Below are positions 1 through 15,207 of a stretch of 24,000 bases of DNA, in pieces. The stretch comes from an uncultured Candidatus Saccharibacteria bacterium (lineage in GTDB: Bacteria; Patescibacteriota; Saccharimonadia; Saccharimonadales; Saccharimonadaceae): assembly GCA_964586855.1 (NCBI GenBank), contig CAZPHO010000001.1, positions 66,076-90,075 on the forward strand, written 5' to 3'. Position numbers and translations under genes: made by a program. The notes beneath the pieces are model-generated. The model had not been told where the DNA came from and did no database searches. It saw only the letters and a list, made by a program, of their open reading frames with translations. Numbering within the stretch: the first letter of the stretch is position 1; every line of letters begins with the position of its first letter.

Positions 1-290
1 TGTTCACCCGGCATGGAGATCATCACAATACCACCTTCTTCGCCATCCATTGCTTGATCGCACAATTCTTCGGTTTCAGCTCGGACCACAATTATCATGT
101 CGCTAGTCGTAGTAGCCTCAATCCCAGGCGTCATCATGTCGGCGTTTTTGATTAATTCTTTGTTCATGTCGGTCGCCATGCCAATCATCGCTCGGTCGAC
201 AATTTCTAACTCGTTGACCTTGGTCGATAACGCCATTAGTGACATCGAATCGGTGTAGGAATTATGTTTAATGAGCGCTTTTGTGATCAC
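1..290 (-). CDS. FdrA-like acyl-CoA synthetase family protein, N-terminal part (gene runs off the left edge)
   Basis: This is my own minus-strand translation; the ORF is not in the ORF track. GGAGG lies at 299-295, followed by a 4-nt spacer and GTG at 290-288. It reads VITKALIKHNSYTDSMSLMALSTKVNELEIVDRAMIGMATDMNKELIKNADMMTPGIEATTTSDMIIVVRAE...IVMISMPGE and stays open to position 1. From memory this matches the E. coli FdrA N-terminus (IHAFIKKGCFQDSVSLM..VMMGTPANK..ICVAIRSE..LISVAGE). Confidence 0.6.
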   Translation of the reverse strand, partial: MITKALIKHNSYTDSMSLMALSTKVNELEIVDRAMIGMATDMNKELIKNADMMTPGIEATTTSDMIIVVRAETEELCDQAMDGEEGGIVMISMPGE

Positions 291-426
291 TTTACCTCCG
301 ATCTTTTTAACTTACGATTATACTATGACATGGTTATGGTTTTCGTGCATCTAGCTGTTTGCTAAAAAATAGATATTTTAATGACAAAAATACAACACCT
401 GGCAAATTAGAGAAATTTCGATCTGA

Positions 427-454
427 TTGACAGATATTTTTAGCGGTATACAAT
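427..454 (+). promoter_or_regulatory. Sigma70-type promoter for cassette unit 1
   Basis: TTGACA (427-432), 16-nt spacer, TACAAT (449-454). The AGAAAGGA Shine-Dalgarno and ATG at 478 follow. Equivalent TTGAGA/TTGACA ... TAAAAT elements sit at the unit 1/2 and 2/3 junctions (1241-1268, 2134-2160), but with a short ~15-nt spacer. Confidence 0.5.
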
Positions 455-477
455 AAGCTTTAAGAGAAAGGATTTTT

Positions 478-942
478 ATGACGGAAAGCAAGAAGAAATC
501 GGAAGCAAAACGAACAAAGCTCATAAAGGCTATAGGGTTAATATCTTTGAGCGCAATTCTTTTAGGGGCTCTAGCTTTTAGCACGGTGAGGTATAAAGAG
601 CATCAAGCAGAGCAGCAAACTTTAAATGATCTATATGACCCGATGATTGCTGAAGATGTAGCGGATTTGAATCTAGAAAGTCGCTACATAACACCGCGAG
701 GAGAGTTTATGGACAAGCTAATTTACCCCAGCGTTACTAGTTATTATTTAAAGCCTGGCGGTAGAACTGATAAACAGTTGTCACGCAATCTAGAATCTCT
801 GGCTAAGGAATTAGGATGGGAGATAAAAGGACATAATGATGAGTACGAATTAAATTTTTGGGCTGAAAAAGGCGATAATAATTTAGGGGTAACTCTGCAC
901 GCTGACTCAATAGCAATTTCAATTAGAAGCCATAAATGGTGA
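478..942 (+). CDS. Small N-terminally membrane-anchored protein, cassette paralog 1 (unknown family)
   Basis: The ORF has an SD. It has a Lys-rich N-terminus, one TM helix (AIGLISLSAILLGALAFS), the motif LNDLYDPMIAEDVADL shared with the paralogs at 1290 and 2183, and a C-terminal ~90-aa domain ending IAISI. Confidence 0.7.
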   Translation: MTESKKKSEAKRTKLIKAIGLISLSAILLGALAFSTVRYKEHQAEQQTLNDLYDPMIAEDVADLNLESRYITPRGEFMDKLIYPSVTSYYLKPGGRTDKQLSRNLESLAKELGWEIKGHNDEYELNFWAEKGDNNLGVTLHADSIAISIRSHKW

Positions 943-946
943 ACAA

Positions 947-1249
947 ATGAAAAGCAAGCGATTGATATTGTGCTTATTGGTGGTGCTGGCTTCGCACCTC
1001 ATTTTTACAATGGAAGCCAAGGCCCAGGTTTATATCCTTGACAAAAAGCTGAATGTAGCTTTACTTGGTGATTATTTCTCAGCTGGAAATGGTGCAAAAG
1101 ACTATGCAGACATAGATGGATGCTATCGCAGTCCTAATAACTGGGCAAGTAATTTTGTTAAATACCTACGACAACAAGGAGTAGCAGTAAATTATAACAA
1201 TGAAGCCTGTTCAGGCGCAGCTACAAAAAATTGTTTCATCTTGAGATAA
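947..1249 (+). pseudogene. Truncated SGNH/GDSL lipase 5' module (signal peptide + blocks I-II only); nucleophile Ser replaced (GDY)
   Basis: This 100-aa ORF has a signal peptide ending AKA|QV. Block I reads LLGDYFSAGNG (GDS in the other copies) and block II reads ACSGAATKN. The frame then leaves lipase sequence at the duplication junction and stops 6 codons later. Confidence 0.6.
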
Positions 1250-1289
1250 AAAAACAGGGTTTAAAATAAGCTTAAAGAGAAAGGATCTC

Positions 1290-1784
1290 ATGAGCAAGAG
1301 CAAGCAAGAAAACTCAGAAAAGAAAAAAGACACCACCAAAGCAAAAACTACTAAAGCGCCAAAAACAGCCCTGAAGAGAGTTGTGAAAGTGCTGCTAGTA
1401 ATGCTTTTTATTTTTACACTTGTTCAGTTGAGCAAGCACATGGAGGACAATCGAATCCTTAGAGACCTTGATGATCCGATGATAGGAAAAGAAGTCGCGG
1501 GACTCAGGCGCAGCAAAATACTAGCTGTTCCACCATCTTGCTTCGGATCAAGCAAGCCAACTATGGGGCGAGTGAGTGCAGAATACAAAGTCGCTGCTAT
1601 CTCAGAAGCGCAACTGCTAGAAAGCTTAAAAACACAATCAGAGAAGGGTGGCTGGCAAGATGTTCGCTACAGCAAAGAAAACAAGTCAATGTTATTTGCA
1701 GAAAAAAATGAAAAGGGCTTAGTTATCGAAGTTAGCTCGGATCTGGTAAAAATTTCAATAGATAAGCTTTATCGCTGTCCTTAG
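1290..1784 (+). CDS. Small N-terminally membrane-anchored protein, cassette paralog 2
   Basis: The SD is AGAAAGGA. It has a Lys-rich tail, the TM helix VLLVMLFIFTLVQL and the motif LRDLDDPMIGKEVAGL. By my ungapped hand alignment, 63/72 N-terminal residues match paralog 3 but only 46/92 in the C-terminal domain. Two Cys are conserved with paralog 3 (PPSCF, LYRCP). Confidence 0.75.
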   Translation: MSKSKQENSEKKKDTTKAKTTKAPKTALKRVVKVLLVMLFIFTLVQLSKHMEDNRILRDLDDPMIGKEVAGLRRSKILAVPPSCFGSSKPTMGRVSAEYKVAAISEAQLLESLKTQSEKGGWQDVRYSKENKSMLFAEKNEKGLVIEVSSDLVKISIDKLYRCP

Positions 1785-1791
1785 GTTTGAT

Positions 1792-2142
1792 ATGACCATT
1801 TTAATACTAACGAGGATTTTAGAAGTCTTGAAGCAAAAAGGAGTAAAAATATACCTGAGCGTCTTTTTTCTGTCCTTTCTGGTGTCTCCGTGCATTCTTA
1901 GCGATCAGGCTGGCGCGCAAGTGCTTCTGGCTGGCAAAAAAATAAATATAGTACTGCTTGGCGATTCATTTTCTGCAGGTAATGGAGCTGGGAGTTATAC
2001 TGGGATTGATGGGTGCTATCGCAGTCAGAAGAACTGGGCGAGTGGCTTAGTTCGACGCCTAAAAGAAGAAGGAGTGTCGGTAAGTTATCAGAATCGAGCT
2101 TGTTCAGGGGCAACTACAAAAAATTGTTTCATCTTGACATAA
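1792..2142 (+). pseudogene. Truncated SGNH/GDSL lipase 5' module (signal peptide + blocks I-II only)
   Basis: This 116-aa ORF has a signal peptide ending AGA|QV, LLGDSFSAGNG and ACSGATTKN. It then reaches the same junction sequence and a stop. In the mature part, 57/67 residues are identical to the full-length copy. Confidence 0.6.
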
Positions 2143-2182
2143 AGAAACAGGGTATAAAATAAGCTTAAGGAGAAAGGACTTT

Positions 2183-2689
2183 ATGAAAAAGAGCAAGCAA
2201 GAAAACTCAGAAAAGAAAAAAGACGCCACCAAAGCAAAAACTACTAAAGCGCCAAAAACAGCCCTGAAGAGAGTTGCTAAAGTGCTGCTAGTAATACTTT
2301 TTATTTTTACGCTTGTTCAGCTGAGTAAGCGCATGGAGGACAGTAAGATTTTGAGTGATCTTGATGACCCAATGATTGGTGAGGAAGTTGCGGGCTTGTA
2401 TCGTGTTAAGCGATCAGCCTCTCCTCCTTCTTGCTTCATGGCTAACAAACCAGGTTCTGGTTTTGTGGAAGCTACATATAGAAAAGGCGACGTTTCAGAA
2501 AAACAAGCACTAGAAAATATAAAAGTTTCAGCTGAGTATTTTGGCTGGCAGAATGTTCATAGTGATAAAACAGGCGAATTAATATTGCTCGCAGAAAAGA
2601 ATGAGATGAGTATGATTGCTGAGGTTGAGTCGGACCTTGTTAAAATTTTGATTTATAAGTTATATAACTGCCCACTTGACTTGCCGTGA
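2183..2689 (+). CDS. Small N-terminally membrane-anchored protein, cassette paralog 3 (translationally coupled to the full-length lipase gene)
   Basis: The SD is GGAGAAAGGA and the architecture matches paralog 2. Its TGA stop (2687-2689) overlaps the GTG start (2686) of the downstream gene as GTGA. Confidence 0.75.
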   Translation: MKKSKQENSEKKKDATKAKTTKAPKTALKRVAKVLLVILFIFTLVQLSKRMEDSKILSDLDDPMIGEEVAGLYRVKRSASPPSCFMANKPGSGFVEATYRKGDVSEKQALENIKVSAEYFGWQNVHSDKTGELILLAEKNEMSMIAEVESDLVKILIYKLYNCPLDLP

Positions 2690-5157
2690 TTACTATTCTA
2701 GTACGAGTGAGATCTTTACAAACTTTGAGGCATATAGAAGCAGGTGCGTGTCTTTTTGTTATTCTGCCTATACTGTTGTCCTGTTTTGTATTTTATGACC
2801 AAGCTAGCGCGCAAGTGCTTCTACCTGGCAAAAGAATGAATGTCGTGTTGCTTGGCGACTCATTCTCTGCAGGTAATGGGGCTGGTAATTATACTGGAAT
2901 CGATGGATGTTATCGCAGTCAGAACAATTGGGCTAATAGTTTTGTTCAGCGCCTAAAAGAAGAAGGAGTGTCGGTAAGTTATCAGAATCGAGCTTGTTCA
3001 GGTGCAACTACACAAAATCTCTATAAGGATACACAGGCTCTGGTTGATCATAAGACCGCCTCTCTTCATGGAAATGTAACTAGTAAAGACGAAGCAAAAA
3101 GACGAATAGCGGCCATGGATCCTTGCAGGTCACAAAATTCAGACGAGCACTCATACTCAAGATACGTAGTTGATAGTTTAAAATATCAAAATAGCCGTTC
3201 TCAGACACTGGTTTCTTATCGATGTGAACGGATGTTGCGTCTGCAGTCAGACTTTATCGGCCCTGAGACTGATTTTATTCTCCTGACGATTGGTGGTAAT
3301 AATTTTGGATTCAGAAGAATTATAGAAGAATGTTTTTTTTGGAGAAATAGCACTATTTGTAAAGAGGTTATTGGTGGAGCTAGAGCGGAGGCGGAAAGAG
3401 AGTATGGTAGAGAGTTAGAAAGACTGCTTGCATTTATTAAGTCCCGTGGGCTGCGTAGTGATGCAAAAATTGTCCTGCTTGGCTATCCTTTACTGTCGTT
3501 GGATAACAATATTAGCATAGGCGTCGGTTTAAATAGAATTAATACGTCGCAAGCCGTTAGAGAGTTAGGGCAGTATAGTAATGAGATAGCCAAGCGGAGT
3601 ATTAGTGAATTTAATAAAAAACACCCTAATCAGGCTTTGTTTGTTGACGCACAGTCTTGGTTTGCTGGTCACGAACCCGACAATCGCTTCCTTACACGAA
3701 ACCCTAAACGCTGGTTGAATGATTTTTTTGAGCCATTGACTAATATGAATGAATGGTATCACCCAAATAAAACTGGTCACCAGCAATACGCTAACTTACT
3801 GAAGCACAATAGTCTGCTAAAAAATTTTACTAATTCCTATCGTCGATCTCCATCGGATATCGACGTCGTCTTCAACATCGACACAACTGGTTCGATGTGG
3901 ACTTCGATTGAGGCTTTCAAGGCGAGTGCGCTTGCAACCGCTACGATGATTAGCAAGAGCAGCGCTAGTGTTCGTTATGCGCTGGTTGATTTTCGTGATT
4001 TTCCAGGTCGTAGCGGCACGCCCTATGATTATCCTGCCAAGCTGCGCCTAGATTTCACGTCAGATATTAACAAGCTGAAGGACGCCGTCAACAACCTGAG
4101 CACTGGCGATGGCGGTGATGGCCCAGAGTCGATGTATTCAGGTCTGATTACTGGCATCAATCTCAACTGGCGGCCGGCCGTGCATAAAATCATTATCACC
4201 TTGAGCGATAATGGGCCGCTTGATCCCGAGCCTGTGACTGGCTATACCAAAAAAGCAGTCATCGAAAAGGCCTTCAAGGTTGATCCAGCTTCACTCTATT
4301 TTATCCATGAATCACCAGTTCGTGATGAATATGTTGATTCGATGGCTGAGGAAAGTGGCGGTAGCGTGATTGTCAATGATAATGAATCGATCTCAATTGT
4401 GTCGGATGCGATAAGGAAAATCATCAACGAGACGCTCGATAGGCCATTCGCTTGGATTAACGGTCCATATCTGGCCAAAATAGGCGAGGCGATTACGATC
4501 GACGGTGGCGGTTCTTACGCCAAAGCTGGACAAATTGTTAAATATGAATGGGATTGGGAAAGCGACGGCATCTACGATAATACGACTACGACTTACAACA
4601 TCACTCGCTCATGGAATAAAGAGCTCGACGGGCTGATGACTCTACGGGTAACCGATTCAAATGGTCTGGTCAATACCGCTAACACCTGGCTGACGGTTTC
4701 GATTGATGGCGACACTGTCAATCAAGAGATCGATAATTGCCCACTAGTTGCCAATCAGTCGCAATCGGACCATGATGTTGATGGTATTGGTAATGAGTGC
4801 GATGAGGACTATATGCCGTATATTTTGGGTGAATTGCAAAAAGCTCAAGCCAAGCAAAATGAAATAGATCGCCAGGCTTTAATCCAGATGTTGCGCGGCC
4901 GGACCAAGGTCAGGTCGCTAAGAGACGTGGCTGAAGTGGCTTTGATATTGGCGGAGGTGTCGATTGTTGAGCAGCTAATCAAGGATAATCAGAGCTTGCC
5001 AGAAGATATGATGGCAGTTATAAATCAGCCAGCAGCAGTCGATTCCACTCCAGCTGAGCGAAAAAACAACTGCAGCCTCTATCTAAAAATAGTTGCTGGT
5101 GTCGGGGCGGCAGTCTTCATTGGTGCTGGCTTCTGGCGCTATCGCAAGCGAATTTAA
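2686..5157 (+). CDS. Multidomain surface protein: signal peptide, SGNH/GDSL lipase, vWA, PKD-like, thrombospondin type-3 repeat, helical stalk, C-terminal TM anchor
   Basis: The 823-aa protein has all four SGNH blocks: GDSFSAGNG (Ser59, nt 2860-2862), ACSGATT, LLTIGGNNFGF and WYHPNKTGH. KIVLLGYP and FAGHE also match, from memory, the Streptomyces rimosus-type secreted lipase family. The vWA domain is ~aa 391-580 (DVVFNIDTTGSM MIDAS-like, GDGGDGPES). The PKD-like fold is ~aa 590-673 (ITIDGGGS..YEWDW..DG...LRVTDSNG). The TSP3 Ca-binding repeat is DNCPLVANQSQSDHDVDGIGNECDED. The C-terminus is LYLKIVAGVGAAVFIGAGFW + RYRKRI. Confidence 0.85.
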   Translation: MITILVRVRSLQTLRHIEAGACLFVILPILLSCFVFYDQASAQVLLPGKRMNVVLLGDSFSAGNGAGNYTGIDGCYRSQNNWANSFVQRLKEEGVSVSYQNRACSGATTQNLYKDTQALVDHKTASLHGNVTSKDEAKRRIAAMDPCRSQNSDEHSYSRYVVDSLKYQNSRSQTLVSYRCERMLRLQSDFIGPETDFILLTIGGNNFGFRRIIEECFFWRNSTICKEVIGGARAEAEREYGRELERLLAFIKSRGLRSDAKIVLLGYPLLSLDNNISIGVGLNRINTSQAVRELGQYSNEIAKRSISEFNKKHPNQALFVDAQSWFAGHEPDNRFLTRNPKRWLNDFFEPLTNMNEWYHPNKTGHQQYANLLKHNSLLKNFTNSYRRSPSDIDVVFNIDTTGSMWTSIEAFKASALATATMISKSSASVRYALVDFRDFPGRSGTPYDYPAKLRLDFTSDINKLKDAVNNLSTGDGGDGPESMYSGLITGINLNWRPAVHKIIITLSDNGPLDPEPVTGYTKKAVIEKAFKVDPASLYFIHESPVRDEYVDSMAEESGGSVIVNDNESISIVSDAIRKIINETLDRPFAWINGPYLAKIGEAITIDGGGSYAKAGQIVKYEWDWESDGIYDNTTTTYNITRSWNKELDGLMTLRVTDSNGLVNTANTWLTVSIDGDTVNQEIDNCPLVANQSQSDHDVDGIGNECDEDYMPYILGELQKAQAKQNEIDRQALIQMLRGRTKVRSLRDVAEVALILAEVSIVEQLIKDNQSLPEDMMAVINQPAAVDSTPAERKNNCSLYLKIVAGVGAAVFIGAGFWRYRKRI

Positions 5158-7345: not shown

Positions 7346-7422
7346 GGGACCATAGCTCAGCTGGTTAGAGCACCTGCCTTTTAAGCAGGGTGTCCCGGGT
7401 TCAAGTCCCGGTGGTCCCTCCA
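7346..7422 (+). tRNA. tRNA-Lys (anticodon UUU, 7380-7382), CCA encoded
   Basis: I folded the cloverleaf by hand. The acceptor is GGGACCA/TGGTCCC, the D arm GCTC..GAGC, the anticodon stem CCTGC/GCAGG with loop CTTTTAA, and the T arm CCGGG-TTCAAGT-CCCGG. The 3' end is a T discriminator plus CCA. Confidence 0.95.
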
Positions 7423-7694: not shown

Positions 7695-8147
7695 TTATCG
7701 TTTCTTTTTGCGGCGAGTCGAGTCTGATCGGCCAATCTTAGGTCGCAAAGTCTTCTTTTTCTTGCTAATCACAACAGCAACAGCTCCCGCAATCAGTGCT
7801 AGTCCGAGCCCGACCCCGACTCTAACCAGCAAAGCAGTAAGAGGCGACTGTTTGTTGACGGTTTTATCTAAGTTGAACCGATTGGTGCTTTTGATTTGCT
7901 CAAAGTTGACCTCATAGTTAATCTCAGCGATTTTTTCCGGTGAGTGGTCAAAATTTTCCGTGCCAATCTCACCATATTCAATTTCAATTGGAATCACTCC
8001 TTCAGAATATACAATCTCTCCGTTAGCTTTTTCAATTCGGAGATGTAGTTGGTTGAAATCAACTTTTTGTGGTTGAATTGTGATTGATGCTTGATTGTTC
8101 TTGAAGCTGACTTCGCTAGCTTCAGTTACGATAGCGTATTTTTGCAA
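7695..8147 (-). CDS. C-terminal portion of a surface-anchored protein (no signal peptide of its own; C-terminal TM + poly-basic tail)
   Basis: The ORF-track start is TTG with no SD. The C-terminus is SPLTALLVRVGVGLGLALIAGAVAVVISKKKK...RRKKKR. The frame stays open upstream through 8243 and matches the frame of the 8244-8633 ORF (see findings). Confidence 0.55.
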   Translation of the reverse strand: MQKYAIVTEASEVSFKNNQASITIQPQKVDFNQLHLRIEKANGEIVYSEGVIPIEIEYGEIGTENFDHSPEKIAEINYEVNFEQIKSTNRFNLDKTVNKQSPLTALLVRVGVGLGLALIAGAVAVVISKKKKTLRPKIGRSDSTRRKKKR

Positions 8148-8243: not shown

Positions 8244-8633
8244 TTAGCAGTCACTAATTTGGTCAATCTCTATCTCTGATAATTTAGGGATGATCTTACT
8301 GTCTGGAATTTTAGCATATTGTTTGCCAAAGGTCGTGCAGCTAATCCATGGCCTATCGGCAAGAGCATATGGTTTTCGTCCGTAAGTTTCATTTTCGTTG
8401 TAAAAAATATAAGCTTGAAGCGAGCTTAACAGCTCTATTTTCTTGACATCAGGTGGTTTAACGTTTTTGATAGTAAAAGTAGCTTTTTCTGGAGTGACGG
8501 CTCGTCTAGCCTGTGGTATCGACACACTGATCATTAACGCTTGCTCTACTCGCAATGATTGATTGGCAAAAAACAAGCCAGTAATGAGCGCTGTCACGAC
8601 GACTACTTTTCTAAAATATTTTTTCCGGGTCAT
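8244..8633 (-). CDS. N-terminal portion of a secreted/surface protein (signal anchor), ending at an in-frame TAA
   Basis: ATG at 8633 is preceded by AAGGAG. The N-terminus MTRKKYFRKVVVVTALITGLFFANQS is signal-peptide-like. The region is AT-rich. Confidence 0.6.
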   Translation of the reverse strand: MTRKKYFRKVVVVTALITGLFFANQSLRVEQALMISVSIPQARRAVTPEKATFTIKNVKPPDVKKIELLSSLQAYIFYNENETYGRKPYALADRPWISCTTFGKQYAKIPDSKIIPKLSEIEIDQISDC

Positions 8634-11243: not shown

Positions 11244-12428
11244 ATGGATAGAATTGTTTTGGCAACCAATCCTGGTTCGGCCAGTCGAAAATATGCTTTG
11301 TATCGAGGCGAAAAATGCTTAGCGACGCTTCATTTTGAATATGTTAATGATCGGGCTTATTGTGAAATTTCAGTTGCTGGTGGTGAAAAAAAACCAGTTG
11401 AACTGCAGATTGATAATATCGCCGAAGCGGCTAGTGAGTGTGAACGAATTTTGCGTGAGCAGGGCGTGTTAAGCGACGACCAGCAAATTGATGCAGTGGC
11501 GGCACGGTTGGTGGCACCGAGTCGAGATTTTCAAAAAGATCAATTAATAACGGATGAAATCATTGTTAAGTTGGAGAAAATTCAGTCCAAAGCCCCACTC
11601 CACACAGGTGTAAATTTAGCAGAAATCAAATACTTCAAGCAAGTTTATCCTGACTTGCCAGTGATTGCAGTCTCGGATTCGTCGTTTCATGCTACCAAGC
11701 CGATGAAAGCTTTTCGCTATGCGATTAGTGCTGACCTGCAGGACAAACTAGATATTGGACGGTTTGGTTATCACGGAATTTCAGTCAGTTCAATTGTTGA
11801 AACCATGAAGCGTGAAGGGATTTTGCCTGAAAAACTGATTGTCTGTCATTTGGGTGGTGGTGCTAGCATTACCGCGGTTCAAAATGGCGAAAGCATCGAT
11901 AATTCGATGGGCTATTCGCCACTTGAGGGCTTGATGATGGCGACTCGCTCGGGTGATATTGACGTTTCGGTGGCATTGATGGTCAAGGAAGAGCTGGGTT
12001 TGTCGGATGATGAATTAGAGCAATATCTGAACAAGCAAGCTGGTTTTTTGGGTTTGTCGGAATTATCAGATGATATGCGGTTGGTTTTGGAAGCTGAACA
12101 AAAAGGCGACGAGAAGGCTAAGGTCGCCAATCAAACCTATATTTATCGCCTAGCAAAAACTTTAGGCGGACTGGTTACTGGAATGAACGGTGTCGATGCG
12201 GTTGTCTTCACAGCGACGGTTGGAGAGCGAGGAGCAGATGTGCGCGAGAATATTTGCCAATATTTAGCTTATCTTGGATTTGAGCTTGACTTAGATAAAA
12301 ATAATAATGTCGCTAAGGTCGATAATGTTGTAAATATTGCTACAGAAAATTCAAAACCACTTTACATGATCCGAACTGATGAGCAGACCGAAATGGCACG
12401 TCGCGCCAATGTTGTTCTAGCTGCCTAA
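11244..12428 (+). CDS. ackA: Acetate kinase
   Basis: NPGSASRKYALY, GYHGIS, HLGGGASIT, SMGYSPLEGLMMATRSGDID and VFTATVGERG match the ASKHA acetate/propionate kinase signatures. Confidence 0.95.
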   Translation: MDRIVLATNPGSASRKYALYRGEKCLATLHFEYVNDRAYCEISVAGGEKKPVELQIDNIAEAASECERILREQGVLSDDQQIDAVAARLVAPSRDFQKDQLITDEIIVKLEKIQSKAPLHTGVNLAEIKYFKQVYPDLPVIAVSDSSFHATKPMKAFRYAISADLQDKLDIGRFGYHGISVSSIVETMKREGILPEKLIVCHLGGGASITAVQNGESIDNSMGYSPLEGLMMATRSGDIDVSVALMVKEELGLSDDELEQYLNKQAGFLGLSELSDDMRLVLEAEQKGDEKAKVANQTYIYRLAKTLGGLVTGMNGVDAVVFTATVGERGADVRENICQYLAYLGFELDLDKNNNVAKVDNVVNIATENSKPLYMIRTDEQTEMARRANVVLAA

Positions 12429-13192
12429 AGACGCGGTGTTTTAATACCAGTTGATTCGTAGCCTGGTGAATTTTCAGGTATACCAAACTCAGGGCAGACA
12501 TTAACTAGTGAAAGTTTGCTTAAGATTTGTGGTTCGCTGACAAATTTATTGCTGGTGTCCCAGGCATAAACGATGCTTTTTTGCTTATCCACTTGCAGAT
12601 ATAGTGCCTTGGAGTCGTTGCGGCAGTAGAGTTGATGCTGAGTGGCGCCAGCGTCGCTCGGTGAAATGACCAAACCGATGCTTTCGATCTCATTTACTCT
12701 TGGGTAGGCGCCCGTAGTGTTACGGAAAGCTTCTAGTCGTCGACCGATCTCAGCCACTGTCAAGTAGGTGTCGCTTTTAGGCTTGGTCGGTGGTGGGTTG
12801 ATTAATTCTTGGCGCAACGCTTCGCAATCAGCTGTCTTGTATTTTTTAACATAAGCTGTCTGCAGGTCTTTGTATTTTGACTTCGGGTTAACGCCAAAGA
12901 CACAGTAGCCGTTGGCGGCTAGCTTAACATAGACTTTATTTTCAGTGCTAAACTCAAAAAAGAGCACATCAAGCGGCGCTCCGCTTGGATCATAAGCAAT
13001 AGCTGGTAGGCTAGTCTCAGATATATATACTTTTTGGGCTTTGTCCATCTGGGCAACATCTGCTTCTACGCTGGCGTTATGCGATTTAAGTCGGGCCCGA
13101 TTGGAGCCGACCATGATCACAAGCGTCAATATGCTAATGACCACAATCACAATTATTAATTCAACGATAGTAAACGCTTGATATTTTTTAAT
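12425..13192 (-). CDS. Type IV pilin-like protein (prepilin-type N-terminus); start codon uncertain
   Basis: The ORF track starts at GTG 13150, inside the hydrophobic helix. The frame is open up to 13216 and reads IKKYQA|FTIVELIIVIVVISILTLV. That is a short basic leader, then F at +1 and E at +5, the class III signal. The only start-like codon in the right place is ATT at 13192-13190. Confidence 0.7.
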   Translation of the reverse strand: MKKYQAFTIVELIIVIVVISILTLVIMVGSNRARLKSHNASVEADVAQMDKAQKVYISETSLPAIAYDPSGAPLDVLFFEFSTENKVYVKLAANGYCVFGVNPKSKYKDLQTAYVKKYKTADCEALRQELINPPPTKPKSDTYLTVAEIGRRLEAFRNTTGAYPRVNEIESIGLVISPSDAGATQHQLYCRNDSKALYLQVDKQKSIVYAWDTSNKFVSEPQILSKLSLVNVCPEFGIPENSPGYESTGIKTPRL

Positions 13193-13302: not shown

Positions 13303-15207
13303 ATGAATGCACAACAAATTCGTCAGAAATATTTAAAATTCTTTGAAGATCGTGGACACGCTGTTATTGAACGCGCACCGTTAATCCTCAAAGACGATCC
13401 AACAACTTTATTTACCGGCTCAGGCATGCAGCCACTGTTGCCTTTTTTGCTTGGCCAGGCTCACCCCAAGGGCAAGCGCTTGACTGATAGCCAGACTTGT
13501 TTGCGATCGCAGGATATCGATGATGTCGGCGATAATCGCCACACGACTTTTTTCGAAATGTTGGGCAATTGGAGTCTGGGTGATTACACTAAGCGTGATC
13601 AAATTAACTGGTTTTTTGAGTTTTTAACCGAGGAGATTGGTCTGGATCCGCATAAGATTTATGCAACTTGTTTTATTGGTAGTGAAGAATATGGGATCCC
13701 AGCTGATACGGAAGCGGTGGAAATCTGGAAAGAAGTATTTGCTAAGCACGGTATTGACGCTAAGGTGGTCGAGCTAGACACAGCTGAAGCTGGTGATCAG
13801 CTTGGCTTGCAGGGCGGCCGAATTTTCCTTTACGGCGATAAAGAAAACTGGTGGAGTCGCGGTGGTAGTATCGAGAACACTCCGATTGGTGATCCATGTG
13901 GACCTGACAGCGAAGTTTTCTATGATTTTGGCGAGGACAACCAAGACCCAAGTTTTGGCAAATCTCATCCTGCCAGCGATGGTGGGCGGTTTATGGAAAT
14001 TGGCAACCAAGTATTTATGGAATATCGGCGCCTTGAGGATGGCAGCTTTGAGCCGCTTAAGCAGAAAAATATTGATTTTGGGGCTGGTCTCGAGCGAATT
14101 GCGGCCTCTTCAATCGGCAATCCAGATGTGTTTGCGGTTAGTTTACTCAAGCCAATTGTTGATAAGCTGGAAGAGCTGAGCGGCAAAGCTTACGCTGATA
14201 ATTTAGTCAGTATGCGAATTATCGCTGATCATGTTCGTTCAGCCGCTTTTCTGGCAGTCGATGGTTGCGTGCCGAGCAATAAGGAGCATGGCTATGTGAT
14301 GCGCAAATTCATTCGTCGAGCGATGGTTCAGGCTTATGAGCTTGGAATTGAGAAGGATTTCTTTGAGCAAATTGGGCCAGTGGTGATTGATTTATATAAA
14401 GATGATTTTCCAGAAGTTAAAGAATACGGCGAGATGGTGGTTCAGATCTTGGCGCAAGAAGAAAGAACGTTTCGCAAGACTCTGAGCAAAGGCGTCAAAG
14501 AGTTTTTACGCTTGAGCTCACTGGTGGCGGCTGGCAAGCTCGAGGCTGTCGGCGGGCAAGAGCTGTTTCGGCTGTATGACACCTACGGCTTTCCGCTTGA
14601 GTTATCAACTGAAGAAGCGTCTAGGCGAGGTATTAAGTTGACTACTGACTGGCAAGCTGAGTTCGAGACTGAAATGGACCAGCAGCGTGAGCGGTCCAAA
14701 ACCGCCTCCAAAGGCATGTTTAAAGGCGGTCTTGAGGGTGAAACTGACAAGCAGTTGCGCCTGCATACTTCGGCTCATCTGATGTTGGCAGCGATGAAAA
14801 AAGTCTTGGGCGACGACGTTAACCAAAAAGGCTCAAATATTAACGACGAGCGGCTGCGGTTCGATTTTAATTATCCAGAAAAAGTCTCTCGGGACAAGCT
14901 GGATGAAATTGAAAAGTTGGTCAATCAAGCAATTGCGGACAAATTGCCTGTGACCATGACTGAAATGTCCAAAGATGAAGCTTATGCAGCTGGGGCGCAT
15001 GGTGATTTTGATGAGCGCTACGGTGATAAGGTCAAAGTTTATCAAGTTGGCGAAGGTGACCAGCTATTTAGCAAAGAGATTTGCGGCGGGCCACATGTTG
15101 CCAATACTGGCGATATTGCCCCAAATGATGAGCAGTTCAAAATTATCAAAGAAGAGTCATCTTCAGCGGGTGTTCGTCGAGTCAAAGCAGTTTTGCAGGC
15201 CAAATAA
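13303..15207 (+). CDS. alaS: Alanine--tRNA ligase, compact form (no C-Ala domain, abbreviated editing domain)
   Basis: The N-terminus IRQKYLKFFEDRGH, TLFTGSGMQ, HTTFFEMLGNWSLGDY, GLERI and RLYDTYGFP are present. So are the editing motifs HTSAHLM and CGGPHV and the C-terminal GVRRVKAV. It is only 634 aa. Confidence 0.9.
   Translation: MNAQQIRQKYLKFFEDRGHAVIERAPLILKDDPTTLFTGSGMQPLLPFLLGQAHPKGKRLTDSQTCLRSQDIDDVGDNRHTTFFEMLGNWSLGDYTKRDQINWFFEFLTEEIGLDPHKIYATCFIGSEEYGIPADTEAVEIWKEVFAKHGIDAKVVELDTAEAGDQLGLQGGRIFLYGDKENWWSRGGSIENTPIGDPCGPDSEVFYDFGEDNQDPSFGKSHPASDGGRFMEIGNQVFMEYRRLEDGSFEPLKQKNIDFGAGLERIAASSIGNPDVFAVSLLKPIVDKLEELSGKAYADNLVSMRIIADHVRSAAFLAVDGCVPSNKEHGYVMRKFIRRAMVQAYELGIEKDFFEQIGPVVIDLYKDDFPEVKEYGEMVVQILAQEERTFRKTLSKGVKEFLRLSSLVAAGKLEAVGGQELFRLYDTYGFPLELSTEEASRRGIKLTTDWQAEFETEMDQQRERSKTASKGMFKGGLEGETDKQLRLHTSAHLMLAAMKKVLGDDVNQKGSNINDERLRFDFNYPEKVSRDKLDEIEKLVNQAIADKLPVTMTEMSKDEAYAAGAHGDFDERYGDKVKVYQVGEGDQLFSKEICGGPHVANTGDIAPNDEQFKIIKEESSSAGVRRVKAVLQAK

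Follow-up and report, generated by a model that had tools for sequence, protein, structure and literature searches.

Lipases encoded beside a small cognate protein have been described in several bacterial systems. The Lif proteins of Pseudomonas and Burkholderia (LipH/LipB/LimA) are small, N-terminally anchored, lipase-specific accessory proteins whose genes lie in the same operon as that of the secreted lipase, and the Tle-Tli pairs of type VI secretion join a lipase gene to that of a small envelope-facing cognate; in these pairs immunity genes often occur as orphans or in several copies, and specificity evolves fast. The type VII system of Staphylococcus aureus includes TslA-TilA, a lipase toxin with tandem genes for membrane-bound DUF576 lipoproteins that confer immunity, and contact-dependent inhibition (CDI) and Rhs loci carry arrays of orphan toxin/immunity modules. 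These systems share features with a locus of an uncultured Candidatus Saccharibacteria bacterium, found within 24,000 nucleotides (nt) of contig CAZPHO010000001.1 (the whole of this stretch is called the window below), where three small proteins with one transmembrane (TM) helix each, here called partners, are encoded immediately upstream of a GDSL/SGNH lipase or of its truncated 5' end. By sequence comparison, the partners are a previously undescribed, narrowly distributed family of Saccharibacteria and a few other lineages. That the partner binds the lipase is probable and well supported, by the retention of the gene pair in every locus type found and by two short islands, one in each protein, that co-vary. 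That it does so as a membrane-anchored cognate inhibitor, i.e., in an immunity-like role, is our favoured but tentative reading, to which we give a probability of about 0.42.

The array (window 415-3030) consists of three tandem units of ~893 bp, each made up of a promoter/ribosome-binding site (RBS) region, a small open reading frame (ORF) and the first 100-116 codons of the lipase, which continues into a full gene only in the third unit. An earlier reading of the letters alone (the sequence-only reading) had listed three partner-lipase module pairs, all of which are present; the tandem unit structure behind them had escaped it. The features, with lengths in amino acids (aa), are as follows.

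427..454, + strand: promoter-like site before copy 1 (TTGACA, 16 nt, TACAAT), 11/12 consensus matches
478..942, + strand: ORF of partner paralog 1 (p1), 154 aa; tail, TM helix, motif and alpha+beta ectodomain, no Cys pair
947..1249, + strand: lipase 5' module 1, 100 aa, truncated; signal peptide and SGNH blocks I-II, GDY, ending TKNCFILR-stop
1190..1440, + strand: homogenised junction block, copy 1; 92-98% identical to 2083-2333 (sliding window)
1290..1784, + strand: ORF of partner paralog 2 (p2), 164 aa, with Cys pair
1792..2142, + strand: lipase 5' module 2, 116 aa, truncated; invariant residues all intact, ending TKNCFILT-stop
2083..2333, + strand: homogenised junction block, copy 2 (repeat comparison, sliding-window identity)
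2183..2689, + strand: ORF of partner paralog 3 (p3), 168 aa, paired with the intact lipase
2686..5157, + strand: full-length surface lipase, 823 aa, recognised by Pfam domains, PDB relatives and invariant catalytic residues

The site at 427-454 is the sole near-consensus promoter of the array (the copies at the unit junctions, with a 15-nt spacer, were not called), and no terminator-like site was found between units inside it. The tight spacing reported earlier was found again, i.e., a gap of 4 nt before module 1, a gap of 7 nt before module 2 and a GTGA overlap with the 823-aa gene. In-frame TTG codons at 1828 (module 2) and 2725 (823-aa gene) would give more canonical signal peptides (MKQKGVK... 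and MRH...), ahead of which the called starts (GTG for the 823-aa gene, ATG for module 2) add 13 and 12 residues, respectively; because exact start codons are only predicted, the GTGA overlap is itself a prediction and possibly not at the real start.

A Lif-type foldase was one model that the sequence-only reading had offered for the partner, and it did not hold. PF03280 (Lipase_chap) gave no match at E <= 1 for the three window proteins or at E <= 5 for 11 family members; Lif has a large all-alpha domain (~300 aa) that wraps its lipase, whereas the partner's ectodomain is alpha+beta and ~95 aa long; Lif clients are alpha/beta-hydrolase lipases of families I.1/I.2, whereas the partner's neighbour is a GDSL/SGNH hydrolase; the Lif gene lies downstream of the lipase gene and the partner gene upstream; and orphan copies and allelic forms occur on the partner side. 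Membership of a known Tli family fared no better, with no match in sequence or fold: no Tli was among the Foldseek PDB top 50, there was no homology to any solved Tli, and the ORFs of the window include no VgrG, Hcp or PAAR of a type VI secretion system, the neighbours being housekeeping genes (thymidine kinase, HrcA, GrpE, phosphoketolase). The lipase itself is an SGNH enzyme that carries a Sec signal peptide and is anchored in the membrane by its own C-terminus, unlike the injected GXSXG/HxKxxxxD effectors of Tle-Tli pairs. Of the Lif and Tli hallmarks that could be tested, adjacency and the anchor were the only ones found. TslA-TilA is alike in its monoderm setting, its outward, membrane-attached immunity proteins and its tandem multi-copy immunity genes beside one lipase, but the partner has no DUF576 or other Pfam match, its anchor is a TM helix rather than a lipid, no type VII secretion components lie nearby and the tandem copies carry lipase 5' stubs. 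In CDI/Rhs loci, too, partner genes are arrayed together with truncated pieces of the enzyme, and a block of homology with the main gene allows these to recombine; there, however, the fragments are C-terminal toxin tips downstream, whereas here the full gene is preceded by 5' (N-terminal) modules, and recombination between direct repeats would delete units, not swap toxin tips. We therefore class the partners as a new family, one more version of the theme of a lipase with its cognate protein, and the literature searched describes no such system in this phylum.

Much of the architecture that had been proposed for the partners was borne out. Each has a short Lys-rich tail (net charge +4 to +7) and a single hydrophobic segment (Kyte-Doolittle 19-residue mean >2.1), and by the positive-inside rule would be a type II membrane protein with its tail in the cytoplasm and its ectodomain outward. 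All three copies have the acidic juxtamembrane motif L-x-D-L-x-D-P-M-I-(A/G)-x-(D/E)-V-A-(D/G)-L, copies 2 and 3 alone have the Cys pair PPSCF ... LY(R/N)CP, and the similarity of p1 to p3 is beyond chance (BLASTP E = 2e-12). An AlphaFold2 model built from 11 sequences (mean per-residue confidence, pLDDT, 88.8; predicted TM-score, pTM, 0.75), which superseded a first model from 3 sequences (pLDDT 68), has a long N-terminal helix, i.e., the TM segment and an extension, followed by a compact domain with the strand order beta-beta-beta-beta-alpha-beta-beta-beta-beta; the modelled ectodomain has seven beta-strands and one helix. The Foldseek search that the sequence-only reading had proposed was run on this model against the PDB and BFVD and gave no functional clue: no PDB match reached E <= 0.001 (best E = 0.045, PA4090), and nothing in BFVD was significant (best E = 0.0076). 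A sequence-profile search of PDB sequences had a best E of 0.31, and for the small proteins Pfam and NCBIfam yielded nothing beyond sub-threshold noise (CrgA, LANC_like, holin BhlA). A thiol-oxidoreductase role for the Cys pair was rejected, since most family members are without these Cys; most, indeed, have no Cys at all. In the partners of two distant loci (L029 1683-2234 and L030 2448-2981; loci are numbered with L and partner proteins with P), a C-x4-C pair (PNCSLGKCS and PGCSMGKCS) stands where p2 and p3 have the first Cys (PPSCF).

The family is small. A word-indexed search of 5.8 billion clusters returned only the window's own proteins, an exhaustive search of 1.84 billion representatives with a hidden Markov model (HMM) found 6 members, and with profile iteration and searches by genomic context the count rose to ~20 distinct sequences, 2 of them gained in a final word-indexed search (15-sequence profile) that was otherwise swamped by low-complexity Lys/TM words. 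None of the sources has a name for any member, no relative of the family was found in Pfam, NCBIfam or among PDB sequences, and a literature search turned up no description of the family or of a lipase partner in Saccharibacteria. P55 and W114 are invariant in 15/15 sequences. The family signature, met by the three window paralogs and 12 other sequences, is a positive tail, one TM helix, (D/E)-(L/F)-x-x-P-(M/I)-(I/L/M) and then (L/V)-x-G-(L/M)-x-L, an invariant Trp past the single helix and a position directly upstream of an SGNH lipase.

The 823-aa lipase has a signal peptide, a GDSL/SGNH domain, VWA and PKD domains, a TSP3 repeat, an acidic linker and a C-terminal TM anchor, and with the first and last of these it would face outward. 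Pfam PF13472 matched it at 49.3 bits (cutoff 32.9 bits), PF00657 was a further match, and SGNH blocks I (GDS), II (G), III (GxN) and V (H) are all present, with S59, G106, N205 and H359 invariant in five orthologs. Six Cys of the SGNH domain are also invariant and probably form three disulfides. Its closest PDB relatives are a lipase of Streptomyces rimosus (5mal, E = 1.7e-10) and phospholipase A1 of S. albidoflavus (4hyq), in which blocks I, II, III and V are likewise conserved; the Saccharibacteria lipase differs in having a ~70-residue insertion in the SGNH domain, in addition to its VWA, PKD, TSP3 and anchor regions. We know of no partner protein for the Streptomyces enzymes. Module 2 retains 20/20 of the residues that are invariant in ten full-length lipases and module 1 retains 19/20, having lost the nucleophile Ser (GDS to GDY, window 1076-1084); its signal peptide is an ordinary one. 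Both stubs end after block II at the repeat junction, neither holds a complete catalytic domain, and because blocks III and V are missing they cannot be catalytic.

The link between partner and lipase that the sequence-only reading had drawn from one locus is strengthened by the other genomes. All homologs with readable downstream DNA precede an SGNH lipase, across 11 locus types that include distant ones, at spacings from a 4-nt overlap to a 10-nt gap. Beside the three pairs of the window and the loci L029, L030, L033 and L034, the pairing loci are the following.

P0004 (155 aa), in L004, L007 and L009: upstream of a 654-aa lipase
P0006 and P0027, in L014 and L015: upstream of a 720-aa lipase
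P0008, in L013: upstream of a lipase of at least 642 aa
P0005 clade, in L010-L012, L016-L018, L035 and L036: upstream of an 807-814-aa lipase, with a 4-nt overlap

A metagenome search with the lipase found more distant lipases (33-52% identity), and the small TM proteins upstream of those in L029, L030 and L034 scored 59, 40 and 59 bits against the family HMM; in L033 (58% GC) the upstream protein has the same architecture and marginal similarity (18 bits, hhalign E = 6.8e-5). The downstream synteny of the window (thymidine kinase, HrcA, GrpE and the phosphoketolase XFP) is shared by L014 and L015, and this locus therefore had a single gene pair ancestrally. L004 overlaps window 1-1325 at 100% identity, so that the same genome carries a fourth partner and a second full-length lipase ~6.5 kb upstream. 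Homologs with no SGNH gene beside them had been named in advance as evidence against the link, and none was found among those with readable downstream DNA, the single apparent exception being P0004 in L005, L006 and L008, where Cas9-Cas1-Cas2 follow. These three loci were rejected as a lipase-free homolog; 85 nt of the lipase 5' end remain there, the mark of a recent replacement in a variant strain. The replacing DNA is a type II CRISPR-Cas locus (Cas9, Cas1, Cas2) with a second thymidine-kinase-like fragment (L005 2152-7478, compared with L023 1-739 and L004 2198-8069), and it displaced the 654-aa lipase except for its first 85 nt, an ABC transporter, DUF1097 and AllG, leaving P0004 upstream intact.

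More direct evidence for a physical interface, although from a small sample, comes from the P0005 clade, which exists in two sequence backgrounds. In each of these the last ~45 residues of the partner come in two allelic forms (form A ...VSLYATKSSLNLFVNVRLENPKLSSRSGAVHLTIQ; form B ...RTSLYAEKNLLKLFVRVAEQSTSSVSDSGSNSKTNSLRLAIQ). A 14-residue patch of the lipase likewise has two versions (NNILLANNSLNKNL vs. ENIEQTKESILTSL), and in both backgrounds CK-NNILLANNSLNKNL accompanies partner form A, whereas CK-ENI(E/D)Q(T/A)KESI(L/H)TSL accompanies form B. The first background is represented by L016 (A1) and L018 (B1), which are 98-100% identical over 2 kb, the two islands excepted, and the same island pairing recurs in the second (L011 vs. 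L036). Since the ~570 nt between the islands are background-specific, i.e., identical within a background and ~80% identical between backgrounds, a single conversion tract is excluded, and the islands would need either two conversion tracts or selection that keeps both matched. In the lipase, the patch forms the first part of the helix past the Cys-Cys loop that follows block III (GGNN), and going by general SGNH topology it would lie beside the active-site cleft. In the window the equivalents are p3 residues ~129-157 (nt 2567-2653) and lipase residues 227-240 (nt 3364-3405). Of all the observations, the co-varying islands most directly fit a partner-lipase interface.

The argument from uneven divergence did not survive in the form in which it was made. 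The identity counts of the sequence-only reading for p2 and p3 were reproduced exactly (63/72 in anchor and motif, 46/92 in the external domain), and the proportions of synonymous (pS) and nonsynonymous (pN) differences divide the pair as follows.

Codons 1-47, tail and TM helix: pS 0.095; 43/47 residues identical
Codons 48-72, juxtamembrane motif: pS 0.94, pN 0.12; 20/25 residues identical
Codons 73-164, ectodomain: pS 0.73, pN 0.35; omega (the dN/dS ratio) ~0.17, with dS saturated

The "conserved membrane anchor" is thus a matter of DNA. A block of ~250 nt (1190-1440 vs. 2083-2333), which takes in the last part of the lipase stub, the unit junction with its promoter/RBS remnant and the first ~47 partner codons, is near-identical while the unit interiors are merely 47-65% identical, and for this reason the anchor is best read as a recent gene-conversion or unequal-crossover tract. 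Conservation of the anchor by selection was rejected, given the low pS there and the variability of the anchor across the family, where conservation is lowest in the tail and TM helix; 5/5 amino-acid polymorphisms of p1 and p2 across samples sit in one or the other. Diversifying selection on the ectodomain was rejected as well. The dN/dS check that had been proposed gave a low ratio, which undoes the case for ectodomain diversification, and on these codon counts both the motif and the ectodomain are under purifying selection.

The reading that we favour is that the partner, co-transcribed with a surface-tethered SGNH lipase or phospholipase-A1-like protein, would bind the latter's SGNH domain, its C-terminal beta-strands and loop making contact with the lipase helix past catalytic block III. 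Held at the producer's membrane, it would neutralise the lipase there, and the lipase domain, at the far end of a long tether, would remain free to act at a distance, e.g., on the host cell envelope. Intact orphan partners lie beside truncated lipases (window copies 1 and 2, and P0004 beside its 85-nt stub), and intact orphans beside dead enzymes are a pattern typical of immunity genes. The partner also diverges faster than the lipase (25-29% vs. 44-49% identity in the same gene pairs). It is these intact orphans, the faster evolution of the partner, the matched allelic forms and the geometry of short stalk and long tether that favour an inhibitor.

Several points weigh against it. We infer physical binding, inhibition and the spatial logic alike from sequence comparison; the fold hints at no function; and the co-variation comes from two backgrounds and two forms only, with both islands inside generally variable regions. 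Two high-GC lipase homologs are without a recognisable upstream partner: L031 has none within the available 321 nt, and in L032 an unrelated secreted protein lies upstream. In L014 (370-480) and L015 (635-745) the partner has TAA at codon 7 (MTNTKH-stop), and the called gene, of 128 aa, starts at a TTG within the TM helix. The stop deletes the tail and most of the TM helix and leaves the lipase intact, so that not every strain strictly needs an anchored partner. P0027, from another sample, is an intact 164-aa allele with Gln at that position; the stop reflects either a nonsense polymorphism or translation re-initiation. The window holds no delivery system and no sign of interbacterial antagonism, and the evidence as a whole fits inhibition and assisted folding alike.

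Assisted folding is the best-surviving of the alternatives, if an unlikely one. The anchored ectodomain would be a maturation factor, analogous to Lif and not homologous with it; as a steric chaperone or escort, it would fold the SGNH domain, or bring it into position, during exit from the Sec translocon. The conserved adjacency and tight spacing of the two genes would suit such a role, as would the N-terminal anchor, the purifying selection on the ectodomain and the six invariant Cys of the SGNH domain, and a co-varying interface suits a chaperone-client pair equally well. Orphan partners beside dead lipase stubs, however, would serve no purpose as chaperones, sharply distinct allelic forms are unusual for foldases, the lipase can be intact where the partner carries a nonsense allele, and the fold is small, alpha+beta and unmatched by PF03280. 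The Streptomyces SGNH lipases, the nearest characterised relatives, are moreover not known to depend on a foldase, which also counts against it. The sequence-only reading had left protection and chaperoning side by side with a lean towards the former; the islands fit an interface of either kind, and the lean to an inhibitor stands, with a share of the probability left to a chaperone.

The array itself is best explained by units of ~893 bp (promoter, partner gene and lipase 5' end) that were amplified in tandem and recombined, which left two orphan partners beside dead lipase stubs. Both truncated modules share the junction-derived tail TKNCFIL(R/T)-stop, and one truncation event therefore accounts for both. 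The preservation of the stubs and the young junction block suggest that the units were still full-length gene pairs when they diverged, and that their truncation and assembly are fairly recent. An assembly artefact as the origin of the array was rejected, as the same arrangement, junctions included, occurs in several independent assemblies at 99.8-100% identity; an identical p1 protein is found on 18 contigs. Two contigs, L023 and L028, fuse unit 1 straight to unit 3 within an identical 40-nt stretch (the two-unit junctions are at L023 2096-2458 and L028 1387-1735), and in two chimeric proteins, P0021 and P0022, p2 and p3 are joined, with at least 2 different crossover points within the homogenised block. 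Such contigs and chimeras may reflect either copy-number variation by unequal crossing-over or chimeric short-read assembly. Because L023 overlaps L005, of the Cas9-replacement strain, at 100% identity, at least part of this variation is probably real strain variation, with assembly chimeras also a possibility.

From this it is a short step to a reading in which copies 1 and 2 and their stubs are decaying leftovers of duplication, only the pair of copy 3 and the lipase matters, and the uneven divergence has no functional meaning. Tandem units with one common junction, the homogenised block that accounts for the anchor identity, the lost nucleophile of module 1 and the chimeras and two-unit contigs (be they ongoing unequal crossing-over or assembly chimeras) are all as it would predict, and the extra window copies may well be recombination leftovers in part. 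Taken as the whole explanation it is quite improbable, as 4/4 extra ORFs are intact, copies 1 and 2 retain all family-invariant residues, even module 1 keeps all but one of the lipase-invariant ones, no ectodomain polymorphism was seen, and it covers the extra copies only, leaving the family-wide gene pairing unexplained.

Patescibacteria cannot make lipids, and how they obtain and process those of their hosts is an acknowledged gap (PMC11665869). A surface SGNH lipase or phospholipase A1 with a dedicated, co-evolving membrane partner offers a concrete gene pair for this question; the partner family, unannotated in the libraries searched, is labelled hypothetical wherever it is present, and the two co-varying islands predict the sites of contact between partner and lipase. 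The family is a rare one (~20 distinct sequences in billions), and its function is a proposed one. That the ectodomain docks on the lipase and carries the released fatty acid or lysolipid to the Saccharibacteria membrane, as a device for host-lipid acquisition, is very unlikely: bacteria without lipid synthesis and with no uptake mechanism identified (PMC11665869), an ectodomain that adjoins the membrane, a docking interface that would account for the co-variation and weak, non-significant Foldseek neighbours that include lipid-handling or helix-grip-like proteins (BamC N-terminal domain, RseB, Ups1-Mdm35) speak for it, but no lipid-binding fold was matched significantly, a ~95-aa domain with one helix has scant room for a cavity, and orphan copies and allelic diversification would be unexpected for a generic shuttle. 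The inhibitor reading can be carried further, at long odds, to a polymorphic lipase-immunity system that needs no secretion apparatus, in which the tethered lipase would attack the membranes it touches (of the host or of rival epibionts), the anchored inhibitor would protect the producer, and matched islands would be exchanged, and orphan inhibitors gained, by cassette-like recombination at the homogenised junction block. If true, Patescibacteria would have their first described effector-immunity system, one directly tied to host-lipid acquisition by lipid-auxotrophic bacteria.

The rest of the window holds the flanking genes, i.e., those for thymidine kinase, HrcA, GrpE, phosphoketolase, acetate kinase, a short alanyl-tRNA synthetase, FtsA, Obg and others. 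A tRNA-Lys (UUU) gene at 7346-7422 separates grpE from two small ORFs on the minus strand (7695-8147 and 8244-8633); of these, one has a C-terminal TM anchor and a Lys/Arg-rich tail and the other an N-terminal hydrophobic segment. At 12425-13150 (- strand) a 241-aa protein with a prepilin-like hydrophobic N-terminus is encoded, and the alanyl-tRNA synthetase at 13303-15207 is unusually short (634 aa), as is typical of the reduced genomes of the Candidate Phyla Radiation.

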